From Dehalococcoidia bacterium (GTDB taxonomy: Bacteria; Chloroflexota; Dehalococcoidia; Plut-88900), in assembly GCA_965197645.1 (NCBI GenBank), contig OZ240219.1:2464001-2528000 (forward strand): DNA of 64,000 bases. Reading direction: 5' to 3'. The translations under genes were made by a program, and so were the position numbers. The notes below the pieces were generated by a model that was not told the origin of the DNA, made no database searches, and saw only the letters and a list, made by a program, of their open reading frames with translations. This document shows, piece after piece, positions 1-61,813 of the stretch. Each line of letters opens with the position of its first letter. Position 1 is the stretch's first letter.

Positions 1-1
1 G

Positions 2-874
2 AGCGCGGATGCCCGAGGGTATCTGGGCCAGATATCGGAGTCCATGTCCGACGGCATGCGCCACCGGTACCTACCCCAGCTGTGCCAGGCCGGCACGAAG
101 GAGATTATCGGATTCGCTCAAGCTCTCGGGTTGACGGAACCGCCTGAGGAGGCGGTGAGGATGGCGGCCTACGTGGCGGAGCTGATACCCGATGGCGCCA
201 CGCTGCAGATCGGCGCTGGAACCCCTACCGGATACCTGCCCCGGCTTGGCGCCTTCGATGACAAGAAGGACCTGGGCTGGCATTCCGAGATGTGGGCGCG
301 GGGCGCTGTCAAGCTGGTCGAGAGGGGCGTTATCAACGGTTCCCGCAAGACCCTCAACCCGGGCATAACCGTGTCCACCTCGCTTTCGGGGTCATCGGCC
401 GAGGAGATCGAGTATGCCGCCGACAATCCCCTGTTCGAGCTGCGGGAGGTGGACTACGTCGCCAACATCTCCACCGCTTCGGCCCACGACATGTACCACT
501 CGATGAACAACGCCCTCGCGGTGGACTTCAGCGGTCAGATCACCTGCGAGACCGTGGGCGCCCGTCTTTACAACGGGACAGGCGGGCAGGTTGAGTTGCA
601 CATGGGCGGTGTTCTCTCCAGGGGCGGCAGAGCGATGACCCTGATGTGGTCGACGGCGGCCAACGGCACGGTGTCGCGGATAACGCCTCATCTGCCCGAG
701 GGTGCGGCGGTCACGATACCCCGCACCTTCGCCGATACGGTAATCACCGAGTACGGCGTAGCCCAGCTGCTGGGGAAATCCATTCGAGAACGGGCACGGG
801 AGCTGATAGCCATAGCCCACCCCGATTTTCGTAAGGACCTCCAGAAGGCAGCCGACGCGCTCTACTACCCCTGA
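2..874 (+). CDS. Acetyl-CoA hydrolase/CoA-transferase family protein (5' truncated by window)
   Basis: Motifs DGATLQIGAG, DLGWHSEM, NNALAVDFSGQ, GTGGQVE, VITEYGVA, LIAIAHPDFR; frame open back to position 2. Confidence 0.88.
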   Translation, partial: SADARGYLGQISESMSDGMRHRYLPQLCQAGTKEIIGFAQALGLTEPPEEAVRMAAYVAELIPDGATLQIGAGTPTGYLPRLGAFDDKKDLGWHSEMWARGAVKLVERGVINGSRKTLNPGITVSTSLSGSSAEEIEYAADNPLFELREVDYVANISTASAHDMYHSMNNALAVDFSGQITCETVGARLYNGTGGQVELHMGGVLSRGGRAMTLMWSTAANGTVSRITPHLPEGAAVTIPRTFADTVITEYGVAQLLGKSIRERARELIAIAHPDFRKDLQKAADALYYP

Positions 875-982
875 TCTTACCCGGCAAGGGCCGTCGTCAA
901 TTCGACTACAGGTATATGATAGGATAACCCCGACGAGGCTGCAGGGTCTTATCACCGCAGCAGCCAGGTCAAAGGAGGCGCC

Positions 983-1858
983 ATGAAACGCATGACCAGA
1001 GACCGGATATGCCGCAGCTTCAGCGCCGATAAGGAGCCGGCCATCGTCGTCCAGCTGGACGAGACCTTCGTAATGGAGACCACCGACCGGTTCCGCGGTG
1101 TAACGGAGTCGGAGTTCCCCAGTGGCGATGACTCGTTGGTCGATACGATGAATGGTCCCGCCTGCATAGAGGGCGCCAAGGCCGGTGACACTATAAAGAT
1201 CGAAATACTAGACATAACGGCGGCAGCGAAAGAGGCCTACGTCTTCGCCATCCCGGGGCTGGGGCCGTTGACCCAGGACATCTCGGAGTACCACATCGAA
1301 ACGGTCAACGTGGAAGGCGACTCAGCCGTATTCCCCAACGGGATATCCGTCCCCTTCCGGCCCATGCTGGGTCGAATAGGAATAGCGCCCAAGGAGGGGA
1401 GCGCCCCGGTAGACGCCATGGGGCCATTCGGAGGCCAGCTCAGCAATGCCGACGTAACCGTCGGCTCCTCCCTGTACCTGCCCGTGTTCCACGACGGCGC
1501 TTTCCTATCGATAGGGGACTCCCACATGGCCATGGGCGATGGGGAGGCGACCAGCTCGGCCGTGGAGGGGGCGGTAGACGCCACCATGAGGGTCTCTCTT
1601 TCCAAGGAGATACAGGTCGCAGACCCTTTGGTGATGAACGCCAACGACGTTATCACCTGCGGAATGGGCGAGACCATGGAGGAGGCATCGGATATCGCTG
1701 TTAAGGCCATGGCCGACCTCCTGACGGAACGTCTGAAGATCGATCGTATCCAGGCGGCCATGCTCATCGGGTGTGCCGGCGACGTCCGCGCCTGCCTCAC
1801 CCTCCACCCGCCCTACAGGATGAAGGTTGTGATGCCTCGCTCCGTGGCGGGAATCTAG
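983..1858 (+). CDS. Acetamidase/formamidase (FmdA/AmdA) family protein
   Basis: GPACIEGAKAGDTIKIEILDI, PFRPMLG, LYLPVFHDGAFLSIGDSHMAMGDGE; SD AAGGAGG upstream. Confidence 0.85.
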   Translation: MKRMTRDRICRSFSADKEPAIVVQLDETFVMETTDRFRGVTESEFPSGDDSLVDTMNGPACIEGAKAGDTIKIEILDITAAAKEAYVFAIPGLGPLTQDISEYHIETVNVEGDSAVFPNGISVPFRPMLGRIGIAPKEGSAPVDAMGPFGGQLSNADVTVGSSLYLPVFHDGAFLSIGDSHMAMGDGEATSSAVEGAVDATMRVSLSKEIQVADPLVMNANDVITCGMGETMEEASDIAVKAMADLLTERLKIDRIQAAMLIGCAGDVRACLTLHPPYRMKVVMPRSVAGI

Positions 1859-1871
1859 CCGGGAGGACACA

Positions 1872-2486
1872 ATGCCCATCGCAGAGACAGGCGACATCCA
1901 TACCTACTACGACGAAACCGGGGCAGGCACACCGATAATACTCATCCACGGCGGATGGGAGGACGTCACCGAGTGGGACCCTCAGCAAGCGGCTCTCTCT
2001 GAGGGACACAGGTTGATCCGGTACGACCGCCGCGGCTGCGGCCGCTCAGAGCCCAAGGAGGTCGTCCAGACACCGGACCTGTGGGTCGAAGACCTGCGTA
2101 ACCTGATGGACGCCCTCAACATCCACGACGCCATCGTTGGCGGTACCTCCTTTGGCGGCATGCTGACCATCGAGTTCATGCTGAGCTACCCGGAACGGGT
2201 GAAGGCGGCGATAATCGTCAGCGCCACCGCCGGCGGCTACGAAGGCGAGGCCGAGTACGCAGTTCCCTTCCCCGACCGGCTGGCAGCGCTGCGGGATGTT
2301 CGCATCCCTTCCCTGGTGGTCCACGGCACCGACGACGACGTATTTCCCGTCTCCGACGCGGAGGCCATCGCCGGCGCAATCCCCAACTCCAAGCTCGCCG
2401 TCCTCAAGGGCAGCCACTCCGTCAACGCCGACAGTCCCGACGAGTTCAACAAGACCGTCTTGGACTGGCTCGGCACATTACCCTAG
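1872..2486 (+). CDS. Short alpha/beta hydrolase (little or no cap domain)
   Basis: IILIHG, YDRRGCGRS, nucleophile elbow GTSFGG, HGTDD, GSH; SD GGAGG. Confidence 0.85.
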   Translation: MPIAETGDIHTYYDETGAGTPIILIHGGWEDVTEWDPQQAALSEGHRLIRYDRRGCGRSEPKEVVQTPDLWVEDLRNLMDALNIHDAIVGGTSFGGMLTIEFMLSYPERVKAAIIVSATAGGYEGEAEYAVPFPDRLAALRDVRIPSLVVHGTDDDVFPVSDAEAIAGAIPNSKLAVLKGSHSVNADSPDEFNKTVLDWLGTLP

Positions 2487-2681
2487 CTGCCGTATCGGAG
2501 CACCCTGGTTGGAAGGACACGAATGGTGAGGGGCAGCCCACGAATGCAATACAGGGTGGGAGGGCAGACCAACCTGGGGATGGGGCCCATCCTAATGGCG
2601 AGCCCGTAAAAGGCAGCGCCTCTGCACCTGAGTGACGGTGGCCAAATGGCACTTCCGCATGCGAAGAGACGCCCACTGGGC

Positions 2682-2687
2682 TATAAT
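2682..2687 (+). promoter_or_regulatory. -10 box (TATAAT) upstream of the urease-like operon
   Basis: Consensus TATAAT about 45 nt before the ureA start; SD AGGAGG at 2720-2725. Confidence 0.55.
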
Positions 2688-2731
2688 TGACCCCGCCTTA
2701 CACCTTTACCCCCTTCCACAGGAGGACGTAA

Positions 2732-3034
2732 ATGCGCCTTACCCCTAAAGAGATGGACCGCCTGACCATCTTCTCCGCCGCCGAGCTGGCACGCCGCCGC
2801 CGGGACAAGGGCCTCAAGCTCAACTATCCCGAAGCGGTAGCCCTCATCTGCGACGAGCTGCTGGAGGACGGTCGAGAGGGCAAGAACTACGAGGAAGTCA
2901 TGGACCACGCCGTCAGCATCCTCACTACCGATGACGTGCTCAATGGAGTCCCCGAGCTGGTCACCCCGATCCGCCTCGAAGTCACCTTCGATGACGGCAA
3001 CAAGCTTATCTACGTCGAAGACCCTATAAGATAG
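2732..3034 (+). CDS. ureA: Urease gamma subunit (divergent)
   Basis: MRLTPKE...GLKLNYPEAVALI...GVPEL...EVTFDDGNKLI; 100 aa. Confidence 0.93.
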   Translation: MRLTPKEMDRLTIFSAAELARRRRDKGLKLNYPEAVALICDELLEDGREGKNYEEVMDHAVSILTTDDVLNGVPELVTPIRLEVTFDDGNKLIYVEDPIR

Positions 3035-3045
3035 GAGACCACCCC

Positions 3046-3417
3046 GTGAAACCAGGCGAAATCATACCTGCCCAGGGCAGCATCCGCATAAACGAGGGCC
3101 GCGAGTCCATTACAGTATCCGTGGAAAATACCTCCGATCACGCCGTGCAGATCACCTCCCACTACCACTTCTTCGAGGCCAACAAGCGACTCCGCTTCGA
3201 TAGAGCGGCAGCATACGGCCGCCGGTTGGACGTGCCCGCCGGCGCCGGCGTCCGATGGGAAGCCGGCGAGACGAAAGATGTCCAGCTCATCGAAATTGGC
3301 GGCAAGCGGAGGGTATTCGGGTTTCAGGGCTTCGTTAACGGCCATCTTAGCGATGAACAACAGGGCGAAGCCCTGGCAAGAGCCCACGACCGTGGGTTCA
3401 TGGACGTGGAGGAATAA
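3046..3417 (+). CDS. ureB: Urease beta subunit (divergent)
   Basis: MKPGEII, QITSHYHFFEAN, LRFDR, RLDVPAG, VFGF. Confidence 0.93.
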   Translation: MKPGEIIPAQGSIRINEGRESITVSVENTSDHAVQITSHYHFFEANKRLRFDRAAAYGRRLDVPAGAGVRWEAGETKDVQLIEIGGKRRVFGFQGFVNGHLSDEQQGEALARAHDRGFMDVEE

Positions 3418-3419
3418 CC

Positions 3420-5096
3420 ATGGCCGGTGAATTGGACCGCTCTGAATACAACGCTCTCTATGGGCCCACCACCGGAGACCGGATACGGCTGGGCGATACC
3501 GACCTGATCATGGAGGTCGAGGCCGACCACACCTCGTACGGCAACGAGGTCCTGTCCGGCTGGGGCAAGACCGCTCGTACCGGCATGATGCACGCCTATC
3601 GACGACCCAGGGACAGCGAGCTCGACGCCCTCATTGCCAACGTCATAATCATGGACCCGGTCCTGGGCATCTTCAAAGGCGATATCGGGATCAAGGACGG
3701 CCTCATCGCCGGGGTCGGCCGCGCCGGCAATCCGGACATCATGGACGGGGTGGATCTGGTCATCGGCCCCAACACGGACGTGTTTCCCGTCGGCGGCCTG
3801 ATAGCTACACCGGGCGGCGTCGACAGCCACGTCCACATCTACCACAACCCCAAGCTGATGCAGACCGCCATAAGCGCCGGGCTGACCACTTTCATCGGCG
3901 CCGGGCTGAACCACAACGACTACTTTACCATCCACAAGTACTTCGAGGCCTTCGAGGAGATTCCGATAAACCTGGGCGTCCAGGGCAGGGGCGCCGCCAG
4001 TCATCCCGCCCCCATCGAGCGAAACATCGAGGCCGGGGCCTGCGGCATGAAGATCCACGAGGACGAGGGCGCATATCCCTACGTCATCGACCTCTGCCTG
4101 CAGGTCGCCGAGCAGTACGACGTGTCCGTTGCGCTTCACACCGACGGTCTTCAGGAATCGATGCAGGTCACCGATACCATAGAAGCTGTCGGTGGCCGGG
4201 CCCTTCACGCCTACCACGTTGAGGGTGTTGGCGGCGGCCATGCGCCCGATCTGCTCAAGCTGGCCGGCGTCGAAAACATCATGACCTCCTCCACCACCCC
4301 AACCGTCCCCTACACCGCCGGCACTTACCAGGAGCACTTCCCGATGACGGCCCAGATCCACGGGCTCTCCTACGAGCTGCCGTCCGACGTGGCCGCCCTC
4401 GAGGCCCGGGTGCGCCGCGAGACCATGGCCGCCGAGGACGTGCTTCACGATATGGGCGCCGTCCCCATCATCAACTCCGACTCCCAGGGAATGGGTCGCA
4501 TAGGAGAGGTGATCACCCGGGCCTGGCAGCTTGCGCACAAGATGAAGCTGGAGCGGGGCGCTTCCAACCCGGACAACGACAACGATCGCATCCTCCAGTA
4601 TCTCGCCAAGGTAACCATCAACCCCGCTATTACCCACGGCATATCCGACTACGTTGGCTCCCTAGAGAAGGGCAAAATGGCCGACATAGTGCTCTGGCAG
4701 CCTCGCTTCTTCGGTGTGAAACCCGAAACGGTCATCAAGGGCGGGTTCACCACGTGGGGAGCAAACGGCGAGGGCAACGCCTCGATAGGCCACTCCGAGC
4801 CGGTGATCTACGGCCCATCCTTCGGCGCCATGGGACACGCCGCCGGAAAGCTGAGCGCCTTCTTTGTGTCACAAGCATCCGTGGACAAGGGATTGGAGAA
4901 GCAGCTGGGCAGCCGGCGCCAGGTCCTGCCTGTCAGGAACGTCCGGTCCGCTTCCAAGCGGAAGATGAACCGCAACAGCCTCAACCCGGACATCAACATC
5001 GATCCTCAGACCTCCCGGGTGTTGGTCAACGGACAGGAAGCCACCTCCGAGGCCGTCACCGAGGTGGCCCTAAACAGGCTCTACGTGATCACCTAG
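3420..5096 (+). CDS. ureC: Urease alpha subunit-like dinuclear amidohydrolase with atypical active-site loops
   Basis: YGPTTGDRIRLGDT, DSHVH, KIHED, LHTD, HVEGVGGGHAPD, SDSQGMGR, TINPAITHGI; flap MVCHHL replaced by AQIHGL. Confidence 0.9.
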   Translation: MAGELDRSEYNALYGPTTGDRIRLGDTDLIMEVEADHTSYGNEVLSGWGKTARTGMMHAYRRPRDSELDALIANVIIMDPVLGIFKGDIGIKDGLIAGVGRAGNPDIMDGVDLVIGPNTDVFPVGGLIATPGGVDSHVHIYHNPKLMQTAISAGLTTFIGAGLNHNDYFTIHKYFEAFEEIPINLGVQGRGAASHPAPIERNIEAGACGMKIHEDEGAYPYVIDLCLQVAEQYDVSVALHTDGLQESMQVTDTIEAVGGRALHAYHVEGVGGGHAPDLLKLAGVENIMTSSTTPTVPYTAGTYQEHFPMTAQIHGLSYELPSDVAALEARVRRETMAAEDVLHDMGAVPIINSDSQGMGRIGEVITRAWQLAHKMKLERGASNPDNDNDRILQYLAKVTINPAITHGISDYVGSLEKGKMADIVLWQPRFFGVKPETVIKGGFTTWGANGEGNASIGHSEPVIYGPSFGAMGHAAGKLSAFFVSQASVDKGLEKQLGSRRQVLPVRNVRSASKRKMNRNSLNPDINIDPQTSRVLVNGQEATSEAVTEVALNRLYVIT

Positions 5097-5166
5097 CATC
5101 CTGGGCCAGGGATTAGCCGCCTTGTTTGGGAGACCCCCCGATAGGCTCAGTGTGAAGGGGTCTCGC

Positions 5167-5580
5167 CTAGTCGTCGAGCCCGAGCTCACGAAGCAGTTCG
5201 ACGGTCTCCTCGTACTCTTCAGGCTTTGGAAGATCATCGAACTTTTTGAACTGTCCCGAGGCGGCTCTTAAGGCCGTCTGCAGACGCCCCTCCAGCTCGG
5301 CGCCGCGGGAGACCAGTGTAGGTATGATCTCCCTCCGTCCGTACATGATGGCGTAGTCAAGGGGCGTCGCGTTACGGTCCTGATCTTGAAGCTCGAGACT
5401 GGCTCCGCGATCAAGAAGAAGCTCGATCATTTGCAGGCGGTCTTGGAAAATCGCCCAATGGATGGGAGGGGGCGTCTCCTCCACCGAATCGACGAGTTCA
5501 GGTTGAGCTGCAAGCAAGGACTTCGCCTGGCTCAAGTCGTCCGCGTCGATTGCGTCATACAACTGGTCCAGGCTGCCCAT
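5167..5580 (-). CDS. Small ankyrin-repeat protein
   Basis: PPIHWAI...IELLLDRGA and TPLDYAI...LVSRGA ankyrin motifs. Confidence 0.8.
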   Translation of the reverse strand: MGSLDQLYDAIDADDLSQAKSLLAAQPELVDSVEETPPPIHWAIFQDRLQMIELLLDRGASLELQDQDRNATPLDYAIMYGRREIIPTLVSRGAELEGRLQTALRAASGQFKKFDDLPKPEEYEETVELLRELGLDD

Positions 5581-5594
5581 GGCCTACGCCCTTT

Positions 5595-6398
5595 TTACCT
5601 TCTCCTCGCCCTTCCTCTCAGAGCCAACAATGCCAGCGAGAGGCTGACCATCCCTACAACTGTAATCGCCCCCAACCCACGAGCGAGGTCACCTACGTTC
5701 CAACCTTCTGTAATCAGCGAGCGCAGCGCTTCCAGCAGGTAGGTCACCGGGTTGAACTGGACTATCGTGCCCAACCAGCCCGTCATCACCTCCCGAGGCA
5801 CGAATACGGTGGTCAGAAACACGAAGGGCATGAACAGGATAAAGCTGGTGTTCACCGCCGCTGGGTTGCCAGTCTTGAGGGCTATGGCGTAGGGAAAACC
5901 GGTGAACACCAGCGACCACGCCGACGCCATGAAGACGAACACCAACACCCCAATGGGCCCCGTTTCGAACCGAACGCCCCATATGAACCCGATGGTCAAT
6001 ATTGGCACCGTCAACAGTATCACCAGTGCTACATCGGCCACCATCAGCCCCAGCAGCAGCGCCAGCCGGCGCACCGGCGTGATCACCAACCTATCGAAGT
6101 AGCCGCTCTGGATATCCGTAACCAGCGTGATAGCCCGTGAGATGCCGGTCACGGTAAAGAGTATCGCCACCGGAAGTTGGAATGCCTTGTAGTCGATGCC
6201 CGGAATCGTCTCGGCGAAGTCCTGCAGCGCTCCGATGTTAATCGTATAGAAAAATGCGCCCATCACGATCACCGGCACCACCGCTTCAGGGTCCCGGCGT
6301 GTCAGCCTGAGGGCCCTGCTCGCCACAGATATCAGGTCCTTGACGAACCCTGCTCGCCGCGCCCTGATCTCCGTTCCCGTCTGTGTGAGAGTAGTCAT
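5595..6398 (-). CDS. ABC-2 type exporter permease
   Basis: Six hydrophobic segments, DIQSGYFDRLVITPV, NPVTYLLEALRSL; overlaps the ATPase stop. Confidence 0.9.
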   Translation of the reverse strand: MTTLTQTGTEIRARRAGFVKDLISVASRALRLTRRDPEAVVPVIVMGAFFYTINIGALQDFAETIPGIDYKAFQLPVAILFTVTGISRAITLVTDIQSGYFDRLVITPVRRLALLLGLMVADVALVILLTVPILTIGFIWGVRFETGPIGVLVFVFMASAWSLVFTGFPYAIALKTGNPAAVNTSFILFMPFVFLTTVFVPREVMTGWLGTIVQFNPVTYLLEALRSLITEGWNVGDLARGLGAITVVGMVSLSLALLALRGRARRR

Positions 6399-7369
6399 GA
6401 CCTCGTCTCCTGCGGACCCGCATCATTCAGTAAGCGGCCGCCGGTGAAGTGCAGGAACACGTCGTCCAGCGTCGGTGTCCTGAGAGTAAGCTCCTGAACC
6501 TCGATCTTGGCCTCGTTCATAGCTACGGCTATACTGCCGATGAGGGCAGTGCCCGAATCCACTCTGATAGTCAACGTCTCTCCATGCACCCCGATGGCTT
6601 CGACACCAGGTATCTTCTCCACCACCTCAGAAGCCGTTGCTGCGTCTGCGTCTCCGGGCAACCTAGCAATAACGACGTCCGAGCCAATGGAGTGCTTCAA
6701 CTCCATTGGCGTCCCTTCAGCGGCCAGCTTTCCGTTGCTGATTATTCCTACCCGGTCGGCCAGGGCGTCGGCTTCGTCCAGGTAGTGAGTTGTGAGGAAA
6801 ATGGTCATACCAAGCTGCTGGTTGATGAGCTTCACCTCTTCCCAGACCCGAACCCGGCTTATCGGGTCCAGGCCGGTAGTCGGCTCGTCCAGAAACAGCA
6901 CCTGTGGGTTGTGTATCAGGGAGGCCGCCACGTCTAGCCGGCGTTTCATGCCTCCGGAATAGGTCCCTATCCGCCGATCGATAGCGCCGCCTATGTCCAC
7001 CATGGACATCAACTCATCGGTGCGACGAACTGCTTCCCGGCCCGTCAGCCCGTACAGCCTACCCTGGAGGTGCAGCAGCTCCCGGCCCGTCTGTTTATCG
7101 TCCAGGGCAGCTTCTTGCATCGCCGCTCCGATAGCCAATCTGACCGCTCCGGGATCGGCGACTACGTCGTGGCCTGCTATCACGGCCCTGCCTTTCGTAG
7201 GCAGTAGAAGAGTGATCAGGATGCGTACCAGCGTGGTCTTGCCCGCGCCATTGGGGCCAAGGAATCCGTACACTTCTCCCGGGGATACGGCCAGGTCCAC
7301 CCCATCGACCGCCCTCACGTCGCCGAACGTACGCACCAGTCCCTCTGTGTAGATCGCGAAGTCGTTCAT
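6395..7369 (-). CDS. ABC exporter ATP-binding protein (DrrA-like)
   Basis: Walker A GPNGAGKTT, signature YSGGM, Walker B LFLDEPT, TTH. Confidence 0.93.
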   Translation of the reverse strand: MNDFAIYTEGLVRTFGDVRAVDGVDLAVSPGEVYGFLGPNGAGKTTLVRILITLLLPTKGRAVIAGHDVVADPGAVRLAIGAAMQEAALDDKQTGRELLHLQGRLYGLTGREAVRRTDELMSMVDIGGAIDRRIGTYSGGMKRRLDVAASLIHNPQVLFLDEPTTGLDPISRVRVWEEVKLINQQLGMTIFLTTHYLDEADALADRVGIISNGKLAAEGTPMELKHSIGSDVVIARLPGDADAATASEVVEKIPGVEAIGVHGETLTIRVDSGTALIGSIAVAMNEAKIEVQELTLRTPTLDDVFLHFTGGRLLNDAGPQETRS

Positions 7370-7379
7370 AGATTACGAA

Positions 7380-7409
7380 AGGCGGTTCCCGGAATACCGG
7401 GAACCGCCT
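7380..7409 (-). terminator. Perfect 13-bp hairpin between thiolase and ABC ATPase
   Basis: aggcggttcccgg-aata-ccgggaaccgcct; short U-run on the minus strand; 10 nt before the ABC start codon. Confidence 0.6.
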
Positions 7410-7479
7410 CCTAACGTTGTCTCCCTTTTTTTGATCCGAGGGGAGCCCTCAGCGGTCAGGATGCCTTTCGGGACCTATG

Positions 7480-8625
7480 CTAGTCGGCCCCCAGCACGAT
7501 GGTGCCGCACGAAGAAAGCGTACCGCCCGTGCCGTTCACCAGGGATAGCTTGCAGTCAGGCACCTGCCGGTCTCCACACTCACCCCTGAGCTGTCGAGCA
7601 GCCTCCAGCAGCAGGAACATTCCGTACATGCCGGTGTGGCAATAGGACAGTCCGCCGCCGTTAGTGTTCATGGGAAACTCACCGCCGGGGGCCGTCCGCT
7701 GGTTGGCCACCAGATCGGCGCCTTCGCCCGGCTTGCAGAATCCCAGGCTCTCCAAAGTTATCAGCACCGTGTAGGTGAACGAGTCGTAGATCATGGCCAG
7801 ATCGATGTCATCGTGGGTGACGCCCGCCATCTCCAGCGCTCGAGGCCCGGTCTCCCGGGCAATGGTGGAGGTGACGTCGGGCATCTGTCCCAGCCCGCCG
7901 CCGTGGTCGTGTCCTTCGGCGGTGCCCAGGACCCAGACTGGGCTCTTCTTGCAGTTTCGCGCCACGTCGGCCGACGTAATGACAACCGCGCCACCGCCAT
8001 CGGTGACCAGGCAGCAATCGAACAGATGGAAGGGCCAGGAAATCCACCTGGAATCGTGATAGTCCTGGACGCTCATATCGTCATGCATCAACGCCTTGGG
8101 ATTGAGCTGGGCCCATTTGCGGGTGGCCACGGCAATCTCCGCCATGGCGTTGCGGGCCTTCTCCTCTCCGTACCGGTGCATGTACTGGGAACAGGCCATG
8201 GCGTAAGAGTGGGGAGCAATCACAAACCCGTAAGGGTCTTCGTACTGGGCGGAAGGTATGTTGGGATTTCCGCCGCCGTAAGCCCGGCTGCTGCGCCCCG
8301 CCTCGCCATGGATGATTACGGCCGTTTCTATCAGGCCTGCACTGATGGCCGCCAGAGCGTGCTGCACGTAGATGACGAACGAGGAGCCGCCCACCTGGGT
8401 GCAGTCCGTATACTTGGGGACCATCCCCAGGTATTCCGCCATATCGTAGGTGCTGGGGCCGGCCATGAATATGGCATCCATGTCTTTCAGGGTCAGCCCT
8501 GCGTCGTCGAGAGCGTTGAACGTAGCTTCGGCGCCCAGTTGCATCATAGACTTGCCGGGAACGACTCCTATCTCATCAGATTCATCGACGCCTACTATGG
8601 CGGCTTTACGGGACAGTTCACCCAT
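7480..8625 (-). CDS. SCP2/Ltp2-type thiolase-fold protein
   Basis: AAIVGV, FDCCLVTDGGGA, MIYDSFT, NTNGGGLSYCHTGMYG; GGSS in place of the nucleophilic Cys motif. Confidence 0.85.
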   Translation of the reverse strand: MGELSRKAAIVGVDESDEIGVVPGKSMMQLGAEATFNALDDAGLTLKDMDAIFMAGPSTYDMAEYLGMVPKYTDCTQVGGSSFVIYVQHALAAISAGLIETAVIIHGEAGRSSRAYGGGNPNIPSAQYEDPYGFVIAPHSYAMACSQYMHRYGEEKARNAMAEIAVATRKWAQLNPKALMHDDMSVQDYHDSRWISWPFHLFDCCLVTDGGGAVVITSADVARNCKKSPVWVLGTAEGHDHGGGLGQMPDVTSTIARETGPRALEMAGVTHDDIDLAMIYDSFTYTVLITLESLGFCKPGEGADLVANQRTAPGGEFPMNTNGGGLSYCHTGMYGMFLLLEAARQLRGECGDRQVPDCKLSLVNGTGGTLSSCGTIVLGAD

Positions 8626-8665
8626 GATCTACCTCCTAATCGAACTGGAGAATGCAGGTACGGGA

Positions 8666-8694
8666 ATGATATTGGCTCAGACGGTCACGGTCAA
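8666..8694 (-). promoter_or_regulatory. sigma70-type promoter for thiolase gene
   Basis: TTGACC-N17-TATCAT on the minus strand; SD AGGAGGT before ATG. Confidence 0.6.
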
Positions 8695-8827
8695 GACGTA
8701 GTGGAAGATGCCCGACTCGTGGTCTTGGACCTCATCGAGCGCCTCCGCCTCTCCTACGATTGAATTTGGATATACTACAGTGCAATCGACAGTGCCCGAG
8801 ACCGTTGAAAGAGAGAGGAGCAGGTAA

Positions 8828-9772
8828 ATGACCTTTGGATGCATCCTTCCCAACAGGGGCGAGCTGGCGACGAACGATAACCTGCGGATGCTGACCGTAC
8901 TGGCCGAAAGTCTCGGCTTCGACTCGGTGTGGGTAAGCGATCACCTCCTGGTCCCGGTGGACTATGACTCCAAGTATCCGTACACCGACGACGGGGTAGC
9001 CCCCTTCTCCGGCGATCTTCCCTACTGCGAGCCCCTTACCACCCTCTCCTACCTGGCCGGAGCCACCCAGCGGATCAAGCTGGGCACCCACGTCCTGGTG
9101 CTTCCCTATCGCAACCCGGTCCACACAGCTAAGATCGTGTCCACTCTGGACTACCTCTCCAACGGTCGAGTGATACTGGGCGTTGGGGTGGGGTGGTTGG
9201 AGGAGGAGTTCCGGGCCCTCGGCGAGACCAGGTTCGCCGAACGAGGCCCTCTATCCGACGAGTACATCCGGCTCTTCCGGGAGCTCTGGACCAAGGAAGA
9301 CCCCGTCTTCGAGGGGCGTTACTATCAGATATCCGGCATGAAGTTCCAGCCCAAGCCGGTCCAGAAACCTCATGTGCCCATCTGGGTAGGGGGCCAGGTC
9401 AACGGGGCGATACGCCGCGCCGCCCGGCTCGGAGACGCATGGCTTCCCATCGGCCTGCGAGGGCCAACAGGTCTCGAACCCGATGAACTGAGAAGAAAGA
9501 TAGATTTGCTGAACAGGACCGCCGAGGACTCGGGCCGCGACCCAGGGTCGGTAGGCGTGTCCTTCAGCACCAACCTGGATTTCGAAGACGGTGGCGGGAC
9601 TCGTAAGCTGTTCACCGGCTCCCCGGACCAGATAGCCGGCGACATACGAGCCTATCAGCAGGTGGGAGTGAGCTACTTCCTGTTCGGCTTCAGAAGCGGC
9701 AGCCTTGGCGAGAACATGGAAGCGATGGAGCGGTTCGCCAGGGAGGTCATGCCCCAAGCCTCTGAATCTTAG
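8828..9772 (+). CDS. LLM-class (probably F420-dependent) oxidoreductase
   Basis: GFDSVWVSDH, EPLTTLSYLAGATQRIKLGT, DYLSNGRVILGVGVGWLEEEF, PKPVQKPHVPIWVGG. Confidence 0.9.
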   Translation: MTFGCILPNRGELATNDNLRMLTVLAESLGFDSVWVSDHLLVPVDYDSKYPYTDDGVAPFSGDLPYCEPLTTLSYLAGATQRIKLGTHVLVLPYRNPVHTAKIVSTLDYLSNGRVILGVGVGWLEEEFRALGETRFAERGPLSDEYIRLFRELWTKEDPVFEGRYYQISGMKFQPKPVQKPHVPIWVGGQVNGAIRRAARLGDAWLPIGLRGPTGLEPDELRRKIDLLNRTAEDSGRDPGSVGVSFSTNLDFEDGGGTRKLFTGSPDQIAGDIRAYQQVGVSYFLFGFRSGSLGENMEAMERFAREVMPQASES

Positions 9773-58554: not shown

Positions 58555-59544
58555 TTACCCTTCCGACCTCTTCTTCGCCAGCGAGCTGATCGCCTCCATC
58601 ACCACCCTGTTGGCAATGACGGACGTGATGTTGCCCGGGGTATCCCAGGCCGGCAGCACCTCGCTCACGTCCATCCCTACTATGTTCACCCTGGACACGA
58701 TGTACCGCACCGCCCGCAGCAGCTCCATGGAGGTCATCCCGCCCGGCTCCAGGCCCCCCGTCCCGGGGGCGTGGCTGGGATCCAGCACGTCGATGTCCAC
58801 CGAAAGGAACATATACTCGGGGCCGTCCAACGCCTCGTTGATGGCGTCCTCCAGCACGGCGTCGAACCCCCGCTCCTCTATCTCCGACATCAGGTGCCAG
58901 CGCATCCCCTGCTCTTTCATCCAGCGGAATATACTGGGCGGAGGCAGGTAACCCCGCAGGCCCACTTCGATGTAGTTCTCGCCCTTCACGATTCCCCGCT
59001 CGAGGAGCCGCCGTACCGGGGTGCCGTGGTTGACGAGAGAACCCCCGTAGCTCTCCGGGAAGGTATCGGCGTGGGCATCGAAGTGAAGCACGCCCACGTT
59101 TCCGTTTCCGTATCGTTCGGCGACCGCCGTGGTATCGGGCAGCACAATGGTATGGTCTCCTCCCAGCACGATAGGGACCGCCCCCACGTCCACCACCTCT
59201 TTCACCTTGCTGCGGATCGCCTCCATGCTCTCGTCGACCATGTTGGGAGGGCAGTTTGCGTCGCCGTAGTCCACGGCCTTGAGTATCTTCAAAGGCTGTA
59301 CGCCCATGCCGAGGTGATGACTGGGCCAGGGCGGGCTGCCCACGTAGTTGGCCGCTCGGATTGCGTTGGGCCCGAACCGCTGTCCGGGCATTATCACCGC
59401 CCCACTATCGAAGGGAGCGCCGACGATGGCGACGTCGGGCTCCATCTCCCTCAGCTCGTCGGCATCCATGGCGTAAGGGAAATGGTTGAAGGTCTGGAGT
59501 CCTACGTAGCTGGGTCCGCCGCCGGGCGGGTTCAGGTCGGGCAT
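58555..59544 (-). CDS. Ureohydrolase (agmatinase/arginase family), second of tandem pair
   Basis: GAPFD, RFGP, GGDH, DAHAD, HGTP, SVDIDVLDP, GTGGLEPGG, EV. Confidence 0.92.
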   Translation of the reverse strand: MPDLNPPGGGPSYVGLQTFNHFPYAMDADELREMEPDVAIVGAPFDSGAVIMPGQRFGPNAIRAANYVGSPPWPSHHLGMGVQPLKILKAVDYGDANCPPNMVDESMEAIRSKVKEVVDVGAVPIVLGGDHTIVLPDTTAVAERYGNGNVGVLHFDAHADTFPESYGGSLVNHGTPVRRLLERGIVKGENYIEVGLRGYLPPPSIFRWMKEQGMRWHLMSEIEERGFDAVLEDAINEALDGPEYMFLSVDIDVLDPSHAPGTGGLEPGGMTSMELLRAVRYIVSRVNIVGMDVSEVLPAWDTPGNITSVIANRVVMEAISSLAKKRSEG

Positions 59545-59573: not shown

Positions 59574-60566
59574 TTATCTGCTCCGCTTGAGGGCCAGTGC
59601 ACTTATCACCTCCAGCACCACCCGGTGCGCCACCTCGGCGGTCACCGCTCCGTGATCATCGAAGGGGGGCGAAACCTCGACCAGGTCCATCGCCACCAGG
59701 TCTACCGCAGCTACTATGCGCCTCATGGAACGCAGCAGCTCGCTGGGGAGGATCCCGCCCGGTTCAGGGGTTCCGGTACCTGGAGCAAACCCTGGGTCCA
59801 GCACGTCTATATCCACTGAGAGGTAGATGTATTCGGGCCCGTCCAAAGCCTCGTTTATAGCCTGTTCGATAACCTCATTGAAGCCCCGGTCCTCGATCTC
59901 CGCCATCAGGTGCCAGCGCATCCCCTGGGCCTCCATCCACTGCCACACCTCCTCCGGCGGCCAGTAGCCTCGAAGCCCGATCTGCACGAAGTTCTTGGCG
60001 GGAACGGCCCCGCTGTCTATGAGCCTACGCATCGGGCTGCCGTGGGCAATTAACGCCCCGCCGAAGCTGTCGGGAGCCGTATCCGCGTGGGAGTCGAAGT
60101 GGATGATGCCCACCTTGCCGTGTCCCCATCTATCGGCCACGGCGGTAGCCGAGGGCAGCGTTATCGAATGGTCGCCGCCTAGCACCACCGGTAGGACCCC
60201 GGCGCCCACCACTTGACCCACCTTGTCCAGAATCGCCTGGTGGGCCAGCTCCAGCGAGTGGGGCGAGCAGTTGGCGTCCCCGAAGTCCACCACCTTCAGC
60301 ACCTGGAACGGCTTCACACCCGTGGGTATGTGGTACATCGGCTCCACCGGGCTTCCGCCCACGTACCCCGCCGCCATCCGTATCGCTCGGGGGCCGAAGC
60401 GCGTGCCCGGCCGGATGGTGGTGCCCATGTCGAAGGGTGCGCCCATGATGGCGATGTCCGGCTTCGTTTCCCGAAGCTCCTCCAGCGTGGACACGTAGGG
60501 CAGCTTGGAGAAGGTCGCCAGGCCGATGTAGGAGGGTTCGCCGTATTGCGAATAGTCGTTGGTCAT
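59574..60566 (-). CDS. Ureohydrolase (agmatinase/arginase family), first of tandem pair
   Basis: GAPFD, RPGTRFGP, GGDH, DSHAD, HGSP, SVDIDVLDP, GTGTPEPGG, EVSP. Confidence 0.92.
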   Translation of the reverse strand: MTNDYSQYGEPSYIGLATFSKLPYVSTLEELRETKPDIAIMGAPFDMGTTIRPGTRFGPRAIRMAAGYVGGSPVEPMYHIPTGVKPFQVLKVVDFGDANCSPHSLELAHQAILDKVGQVVGAGVLPVVLGGDHSITLPSATAVADRWGHGKVGIIHFDSHADTAPDSFGGALIAHGSPMRRLIDSGAVPAKNFVQIGLRGYWPPEEVWQWMEAQGMRWHLMAEIEDRGFNEVIEQAINEALDGPEYIYLSVDIDVLDPGFAPGTGTPEPGGILPSELLRSMRRIVAAVDLVAMDLVEVSPPFDDHGAVTAEVAHRVVLEVISALALKRSR

Positions 60567-60757: not shown

Positions 60758-61813
60758 ATGGCGGACACCGGCCAGGAATTCATCAGCTATTACTCGGGCT
60801 TCCCTTCCTTTTTCAAGTCTCCCATCATCACGCCCAATGACATCGAAGAAGGGATGGTCGTCGTTGCCGGCGTGCCCCTGGACGAGGGGATCAACATGGG
60901 AAGGAAGGGCGCCCGGTATGGCCCGCGAGGCATCCGCGAGGGCACCTACAAGTATCGAACGGTGCAGGAGGTGGCCGAGGACCGCACCACGGTGGACATC
61001 GACTCTAACCTCGGGTTCCGGTACAAGGGCGACCACGTCATAGGTGATATCGGCGACTTCGCCATTTCGCCCCAGGACATTCTACAGACCACCGAGAACG
61101 TGGCCAACGGAGTGAGCGACATAGTGCAACGAGGCGGGCTGCCCGTGGTCCTGGGAGGCGACCACTACGTCTGCTATCCCTCCTTTCTCGGATTCGCCCG
61201 GGGGATGATCGAGCGAAAGTCCAACCCCCGCATCGGCTATCTTCACATAGACAGCCACGCCGACTTTTGGGACCAGCTCCAGGGAGCGAGCCGATACAAT
61301 CACGGCACCTCGGTGCGGCGCATCAGCGAAAACTCCTCCATCTCCTACAAGAACATGGCCTGGCTTGGGCTCAACGGCGCCGGCATGGACCCCGAGCAGT
61401 ACCGGATGTATACCAATCACAGCCTGAAGATGCTCACTGCTAAGATGATGATGGACAGGGGCATCGATGAGGCCGTCAAGGAGGTGATGGAGGTGGCCGC
61501 CGAGAGCGTAGACGCCGTCTACGTAAGCATAGACATCGACGTGGTTGATGGCTCGGAAGCTGCCGGCACAACAGCCTGCGTATACCAGGGAATCCGCGCG
61601 AGAGAGTTCCTCTACCTCACCTCGGTGCTCAGCCAGTTCGACATCGTCAAGGGCATCGACATCTGCGAGGTGTCCCCACCCCTGGACCCCACCGGCCGAA
61701 CGGTCCACTTGGCGGCACTGGGCGTCCTGTCCGTGCTGAGCCCCAAGCTCTTCGATACCGTCGACATGACCACGGGAAAGGTACTGGAAGGCCACTCCGG
61801 CTTCAGCTACTAG
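60758..61813 (+). CDS. Divergent ureohydrolase (arginase family)
   Basis: GVPLD, GARYGP, GGDH, DSHAD, NHGT, SIDIDVVD, EVSP; ATG after SD GGAGGT. Confidence 0.88.
   Translation: MADTGQEFISYYSGFPSFFKSPIITPNDIEEGMVVVAGVPLDEGINMGRKGARYGPRGIREGTYKYRTVQEVAEDRTTVDIDSNLGFRYKGDHVIGDIGDFAISPQDILQTTENVANGVSDIVQRGGLPVVLGGDHYVCYPSFLGFARGMIERKSNPRIGYLHIDSHADFWDQLQGASRYNHGTSVRRISENSSISYKNMAWLGLNGAGMDPEQYRMYTNHSLKMLTAKMMMDRGIDEAVKEVMEVAAESVDAVYVSIDIDVVDGSEAAGTTACVYQGIRAREFLYLTSVLSQFDIVKGIDICEVSPPLDPTGRTVHLAALGVLSVLSPKLFDTVDMTTGKVLEGHSGFSY

Follow-up and report, generated by a model that had tools for sequence, protein, structure and literature searches.

The canonical ureases are the nickel enzymes of Klebsiella aerogenes, Sporosarcina pasteurii and Helicobacter pylori (UreAB), whose catalytic residues are H219, D221, H320 and R336 in K. 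aerogenes numbering. The metal ligands of the K. aerogenes enzyme are His134, His136, Lys217, His246, His272 and Asp360 (excerpts of PMC3816311). According to excerpts of PMC6737895, mutations in ureD, ureE, ureF or ureG leave canonical urease with almost no activity, and two true ureases, UreABC of Bacillus subtilis and the iron enzyme UreA2B2 of Helicobacter mustelae (PDB 3QGA), work without accessory proteins. Here we analyze a ureABC locus from an uncultured, sponge-associated Dehalococcoidia bacterium (assembly GCA_965197645.1), which lies in a stretch of 64,000 nucleotides on contig OZ240219.1 (positions 2,464,001 to 2,528,000), called the window below. Its catalytic subunit belongs to a clade with a shortened loop at the pocket, the short-loop clade. 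We infer activity, metal and substrate with a confidence that comes close to an even chance: UreABC may be an active, accessory-independent true urease.

Three closely packed open reading frames on the plus strand, free of internal stops, encode the three subunits (Table 1), and profile searches of the whole genome gave PF00547 and PF00699 matches at ureA (2732-3034) and ureB (3046-3417) alone. UreC was matched by the Pfam families Urease_alpha (E 1e-43) and Amidohydro_1 (PF01979, E 2e-49), and its score against the NCBIfam urease equivalog TIGR01792, 683.5, lies 3.5 bits above the cut-off of 680. All solved urease structures are canonical; the closest to UreC is H. pylori UreB (E 5e-169), and its 48% identity is the highest found. 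The canonical nickel ureases resemble the window in having three structural subunits and the same fold, at 43-48% identity. The UreB C-terminus runs about 20 residues beyond the 104-position equivalog model; NF009682 covers residues 2-103 only, and the gamma/beta-fusion model NF009671 covers 2-120. This extension is also covered by the H. pylori-type UreA model NF010592, and not by the plain beta-subunit model.

The structural evidence for UreC consisted of the predicted local distance difference test (pLDDT), secondary structure and fold matches. An AlphaFold2 model built with 44 homologues reached a pLDDT of 89.4 and a predicted template modelling score (pTM) of 0.93, with a mean pLDDT of 76 in the pocket-loop block (residues 161-170). 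It matched solved ureases with template modelling (TM) scores of 0.96-0.97 and root-mean-square deviations of 1.6-1.8 Å. The very low Pfam and NCBIfam E-values, the confident model and these high TM scores leave no doubt about fold and gene set. The TIM-barrel and the HxH, K, H, H, D ligand pattern of the amidohydrolase superfamily were found by PF01979, the model and the fold search, and judged by its sequence UreC is a urease-fold member of this superfamily, of the binuclear subtype with a carbamylated lysine. The next structural matches after the ureases were other enzymes of this subtype, D-hydantoinase, allantoinase and dihydroorotase (TM 0.43-0.49), which have the same ligand pattern and are not known to need dedicated chaperones for metal loading. 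Unlike the window enzyme, they lack gamma and beta subunits as well as the urease flap, and their identity to UreC is 13-17%.

The strongest anomaly of the locus, unmentioned in the initial annotation, is the absence of UreD, UreF and UreG. The genome, one contig of 3.21 Mb that is 94.5% complete, contains a single copy each of ureA and ureB together with two ureC-like genes, both of the short-loop type, and gave no match to UreD (PF01774), UreF (PF01730) or UreG (TIGR00101), UreE not having been searched separately. Among the control genomes, B. subtilis was listed for ureA, ureB and ureC matches and not for UreD, UreF or UreG. The search for UreG was extended to the class, in a sample of 201 genomes of which 18 had a ureC-like gene (two of these, G154 and G065, lay outside the UreG test). 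UreG scored over the cut-off in none of the seven tested genomes with short-loop ureC only, and in 8/9 genomes with a ureC of about 50% identity (G175 gave none); in seven of those eight it lay on the same contig, about 1.5 kb or less from this ureC. Five soil genomes of a distant Rokubacteria/Chloroflexota subclade, all with a short-loop gene, also had no UreG over the cut-off, which makes 0/12 for genomes with only short-loop ureC (7 class and 5 soil). A survey of fetched loci, with flanks up to 8 kb, covered 35 short-loop and 96 longer-loop ureC genes. All 35 short-loop loci had ureA and ureB beside ureC, and none had ureG or ureF; ureG was present in 77 of the 96 longer-loop loci, and several of the 19 exceptions were short contigs.

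The described accessory-free ureases are not close kin of the window enzyme. UreA2B2 showed no special kinship to UreC, ranking among ordinary ureases (3QGA_C, E 4.7e-162, 46% identity), and its gamma and beta subunits are fused, whereas ureA and ureB of the window are separate genes. Bacillaceae-type UreC sequences (L138, L146, L154), unlike that of the window, have a 31-residue loop and HEDWG and fall inside the canonical clade.

How much of the urease active site has been kept? A residue-by-residue alignment to H. pylori urease (1E9Z) places the metal ligands at H137, H139, K211, H240, H266 and D354. The initial annotation was right that all six metal-site residues are present, but it took the His of GGGH for the fifth ligand. 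This residue (H274) is conserved and is not a ligand; the fifth ligand is H266 of YHVEG, which pairs with H274 (FHTEG) of the H. pylori enzyme. The distance of 26 residues from H240 to H266 fits the spacing of H246 and H272 in K. aerogenes (excerpts of PMC3816311). H213, D215, H314 and R330 correspond to H219, D221, flap H320 and R336 of the K. aerogenes enzyme, and the titles of the PDB H219, D221 and H320 variants agree with this numbering. We compared alignment columns between 80 dereplicated short-loop and 56 dereplicated longer-loop UreC sequences. The six ligands and both catalytic histidines (H213, H314) were present in 80/80 short-loop sequences, and D215 and R330 in 79/80, so that selection must act on the clade as an enzyme. 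Judging from these invariant residues, the chemistry of UreC is almost certainly that of urease.

In the mechanism that we propose, carbamylated Lys211 would bridge two metal ions held by H137, H139, H240, H266 and D354; H213 would polarise the substrate carbonyl, the bridging hydroxide would attack, and flap His314 would act as the general acid that protonates the leaving nitrogen, as in urease. Maturation would proceed without UreD, UreE (not searched separately), UreF or UreG, as in B. subtilis and UreA2B2, the metal centre assembling itself with spontaneously inserted Ni or, more likely, Fe, Mn or Zn. The most likely task of the enzyme would be to release ammonia from urea supplied by the many ureohydrolases of the organism. 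The window genome has 16 genes of the arginase family of urea-releasing ureohydrolases, several in tandem, and no urea carboxylase over the curated cut-off. The arginase genes, together with the absence of another urea-degrading system over the cut-off and of any ureC-like gene besides the two short-loop copies, point to urea, but the arginase expansion is only suggestive, because kin are not independent. We considered it as proof of urea use and rejected it as such: every family genome sampled (10/10) gave at least 10 matches, where other Dehalococcoidia families gave 0-4, and it is thus a trait of the whole family.

Several observations weigh against an accessory-independent true urease. Three of the ten family genomes have the arginase expansion without any ureC, so urea need not be degraded. 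No UrtA urea transporter scored over the curated cut-off in the window genome, and the annotated loci showed no ure or urt transporter gene. The pocket loop that follows the third strand counts 21 residues, the 10-residue deletion taking out the greater part of the conserved GGGTGPAxGTxATTxTPG segment next to the active site. At ten further positions the short-loop clade is fixed for another residue than longer-loop UreC: W48 (longer-loop G), M57 (G), R101 (K), N166 (P), Y219 (T), G243 (T), T293 (N), M336 (I), G357 (A) and R553 (Q), of which G357 is non-diagnostic, since Gly also occurs in 13/56 longer-loop sequences. In unrooted trees the UreC of Proteus mirabilis, Sporosarcina, Brucella and a Klebsiella plasmid fell in the canonical clade and the short-loop clade outside it. 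Six other clade members were scored against TIGR01792, and one reached 695.8 and five only 592-669. No cultured organism was found among the named members of the clade that we saw. Lastly, hydantoinase-like, isochorismatase (BiuH/RutB-like), DUF1989, amidase and M20 genes lie beside ureC in some relatives.

The initial annotation had proposed a urease-like hydrolase with a rebuilt substrate pocket, acting on a substituted urea, carbamoyl or amide compound. In this reading the catalytic chemistry would be that of urease, the rebuilt pocket wall would select another small C-N substrate (candidates are substituted ureas, ureido compounds, carbamates, guanidine and short amides), and the urease label of the clade would be wrong; we regard this as quite possible, and as nearly as likely as a true urease. 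Its description of the protein was largely accurate. All motifs that it quoted (SGWGK, DSHVHIYH, GAGLNHN, KIHEDEG, LHTDGLQE, GGGH, AQIHGL, SDSQGMGR) occur in the UreC translation, and the canonical pocket-side motifs (the GGGTGPA...TPG loop, HEDWG, HTDT and the flap CHH) are not matched. Compared with canonical urease, which has UreD, UreF and UreG, a loop of 31 residues and all of these motifs, the W of HEDWG is replaced by Glu, the T of HTDT by Gly and GGGK by GWGK. The loop is indeed cut down: 31 residues were counted in 42/56 longer-loop sequences, and 21 in 77/80 short-loop ones. The flap is likewise rebuilt, with catalytic His314 kept, Ile313 in place of Cys and Gly315 in place of the second His; these changes are not markers specific for urea, because both states also occur in longer-loop ureases, among them the Bacillaceae-type L154. 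The change of SQAMGR to SQGMGR fails as such a marker, as Gly was found in 13/56 longer-loop UreCs, some of them beside ureG. The claim that the altered positions are near-invariant in ureases was overstated for some of them: among the 56 longer-loop sequences W was kept in 50 and T or S of HTDT in 54, the flap Cys in 41, the second flap His in 45 and the Ala of SQAMGR in 43. Still, the pocket-side differences are fixed as a conserved signature of the short-loop clade, and those at the W of HEDWG, the T of HTDT and the P of GGGTGPA, together with the loop deletion, favour another substrate.

Phylogeny gives this explanation further support. With FastTree (90 sequences) the short-loop group of 60 rows (support 96) stood apart from 22 sequences with a CHH flap (support 100), and IQ-TREE (LG+C20, quick search, 43 sequences) gave the same split with SH-aLRT values of 94 and 100. 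The window UreC does not nest among validated ureases in either unrooted tree, and the view that it is a distinct urease-fold enzyme is borne out. The equivalog cut-off almost separates the clade, given 683.5 against 680 for the window and five of the six others below; the looser subfamily model NF009686 was passed by all tested members and would still label each of them urease. A suggested resemblance to the atypical second ureC of Streptomyces did not hold up, since L075 (a plasmid of Streptomyces sp.) and P0131 form a separate group with different motifs in both trees. Like the window UreC these sequences are divergent, have lost the flap Cys and have a shortened loop, and L075 resembles short-loop loci in that no ureG was found in its 6-kb flanks. 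Unlike it, L075 has a loop of 27 residues, the motif GCGK and retained HEDWG and HTDT, and the flap of the Streptomyces type reads MTVHRGH and its last motif SDSMGMGR. Intermediate UreC groups were also seen in the representative library (P0128/P0130, P0133/P0138, P0109).

The neighbourhoods can be read in favour of another substrate as well. In the window itself an FmdA/AmdA-like protein and an alpha/beta hydrolase are encoded upstream, as is a coenzyme A (CoA)-transferase; the downstream genes encode an ankyrin protein and an ABC-2 exporter. Among relatives, one context combines an amidohydrolase with a DgaE-like pyridoxal phosphate (PLP) lyase. In another, a DUF1989 gene lies just upstream of ureA (4 loci), with hydantoinase-like (dihydropyrimidinase-like), BiuH/RutB-like, glycine-oxidase-like and solute-binding genes. 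Rokubacteria have TauD, DoxX, XDH-like, M20 and threonine-synthase-like PLP-enzyme genes upstream and a class-III aminotransferase downstream; further amidohydrolases or amidases were found in L077, L079, L088, L095 and L097, and M20 genes and various binding proteins elsewhere. The shared theme of these neighbourhoods is the breakdown of nitrogen-rich compounds, which fits a common last step from urea to ammonia or varied substrates.

Against a substrate other than urea stands, however, the retention of all residues known to bind or activate urea. The many urea-producing enzymes of the genome, with no other urea sink over the cut-off, also oppose it. Several of the motif changes are shared with longer-loop ureases, as described, and the changes could equally stem from the loss of a Ni-delivery interface or from another metal; if the enzyme is a true urease that needs no accessory proteins, the shorter loop and the missing W and T would be a sign of this rather than of a new substrate. 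The substrate is not deducible from the neighbours, because a partner gene common to the whole clade is absent. As a substrate clue the window's own CoA-transferase, FmdA-like, alpha/beta-hydrolase, ankyrin and ABC-2 genes were rejected, being absent from the 15 closest loci. Varied neighbourhoods are what would be expected for an end step common to many nitrogen-catabolic routes.

A broader formulation takes in both substrates, and we consider it a real possibility, although short of an even chance: short-loop UreABC may be a widespread self-assembling, nickel-chaperone-independent family that acts on a urea analogue (ureido compound, substituted urea, carbamate, guanidine) or on urea with a non-Ni metal. 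With the same reserve, its range may extend over sponge-symbiont Dehalococcoidia, Rokubacteria/Methylomirabilota, Planctomycetota, Nitrospiraceae and others. Searching 5.8 billion proteins brought up the short-loop signature in many proteins of 555-559 aa, carried by metagenome-assembled genomes of Dehalococcoidia, Chloroflexota, Planctomycetota, Methylomirabilota/Rokubacteria, Tectomicrobia and Bathyarchaeia. Full-text literature searches, with subscription papers and supplements outside the scope, gave no account of a short-loop UreC clade that lacks accessory genes; in PMC3098086 (SIMBAL) urease figures solely as a profile for urea transporters.

That UreC is a catalytically dead or moonlighting urease-fold protein is very improbable. 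Ligand-less urease-alpha homologues do exist in the representative library (P0140 and P0153, for example), and the second, orphan copy in the window genome has no D221 equivalent; the ligands and catalytic residues of the window copy, however, are intact and all but invariant in the clade, and ureA and ureB are always retained. Least credible of all is an ordinary Ni-urease with accessory genes that escaped detection, because of an assembly gap or of divergence beyond the models, for although the genome is not 100% complete and canonical activity depends on these genes (excerpts of PMC6737895), the single contig has no UreD, UreF or UreG match, UreG also failed to reach the cut-off in 11 further genomes of two distant lineages, ureG and ureF were missing from all short-loop loci, and the same UreG model succeeded in nearly all class genomes with the ureC of about 50% identity.

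Table 1. Features of the ureABC region and related genes (window positions unless stated otherwise)
Feature	Position	Strand	Remarks
Short FmdA/AmdA-family protein, 291 aa	983-1858	+	Partial match to the 373-position acetamidase/formamidase model
Alpha/beta hydrolase, 204 aa	1872-2486	+	13 nt after the FmdA/AmdA-family gene
Intergenic region upstream of ureA, 245 bp	2487..2731	+	Neither a known riboswitch nor a consensus promoter found
ureA, urease gamma-type subunit, 100 aa	2732..3034	+	Full-length match to Pfam PF00547, E 6.9e-37
ureB, urease beta-type subunit, 123 aa	3046..3417	+	GTG start; Pfam PF00699, E 3.6e-39
ureC, urease alpha-type catalytic subunit, 558 aa	3420..5096	+	Short-loop clade; PF00449 and PF01979
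Span with the six metal-ligand codons and catalytic H213, D215, H314, R330	3828..4481	+	Alignment to 1E9Z; PMC3816311
Shortened pocket loop, residues 160-180 (FIGAGLNHNDYFTIHKYFEAF)	3897..3959	+	21 residues, 31 in canonical UreC
Mobile-flap helix-turn-helix, residues 302-330	4323..4409	+	Model helices 302-313 and 321-330; alignment; column counts
Ankyrin-repeat protein gene	5167-5580	-	Directly downstream of ureC
Arginase-family gene	58591-59436	-	13 more elsewhere in the genome besides the three in the window
Arginase-family gene	59607-60458	-	
Arginase-family gene	60857-61732	+	
Second, orphan ureC-like gene, short-loop type	2221598-2223274 (genome contig)	-	68% identical to the window copy

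The pair of FmdA/AmdA-like and alpha/beta-hydrolase genes does not adjoin ureABC in relatives. In the eight closest Dehalococcoidia loci (L007-L014) genes for cadherin-domain proteins of about 1,640 aa and 550 aa lie upstream of ureABC. An Rfam scan of positions 1-9000 of the window, and of 8 related loci, found no riboswitch or leader upstream of ureA, and promoter and terminator scans gave nothing above shuffled sequences. One Rfam match, 5_ureB_sRNA antisense inside ureC (3581-3867, minus strand; 38.3 bits, gathering score 40), was rejected as coding-sequence similarity to H. pylori ureB; the same model matched L007 with 40.7 bits, which also looks like coding-sequence conservation. The labelled sequencing runs that contain the window stretch are sponge metagenome libraries, consistent with a host-associated lifestyle. 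Small contigs matching ureA and ureC exactly occur in four sponge RNA-library runs of one study, weak evidence for an active enzyme in that such libraries may contain DNA and parts of the stretch have no cover.

The orphan ureC-like gene has no adjoining ureA or ureB. Its motifs are KIHEYSG, with Tyr in place of the D221 equivalent, a GPVHDL flap and SDSQGFGR, and its neighbours encode an enoyl-CoA hydratase, a PNPOx-like protein, a luciferase-like monooxygenase, a class-III aminotransferase, an alpha/beta hydrolase, a 2-oxoacid dehydrogenase complex and an amidase. The close relative L009 carries short-loop ureC twice, at a distance of about 6 kb (61-1734 and 8001-9674), each copy 83% identical to that of the window; ureA and ureB were seen with the second only, the first lying at the edge of the locus. 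The representative library also holds full-length urease-alpha homologues with degraded ligands and SDSQ, probably pseudo-enzymes (P0140, P0153-P0155, P0161-P0172, P0182, P0197, P0198, P0239).

The ureC gene is used as a marker of urea use in sponges and soils (examples are PMC3669342 and PMC6031400). The concern of the initial annotation about mislabelling is justified to the extent that every named member of the short-loop clade is called urease subunit alpha in public sources; annotation pipelines apply this label to the clade, and sponge and soil ureC counts include this branch. Should urea not be hydrolysed by the clade, counts of urea use would be too high for sponge symbionts, Rokubacteria-rich soils and groundwater. 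Should the substrate be a urea analogue or the metal not be nickel, a whole ureC branch in genomes and metagenomes would represent undescribed chemistry. If the clade does hydrolyse urea, a broad group of ureases independent of Ni insertion would join those of B. subtilis and UreA2B2, with a bearing on the assembly of the urease metal centre and on nickel demand in nature.

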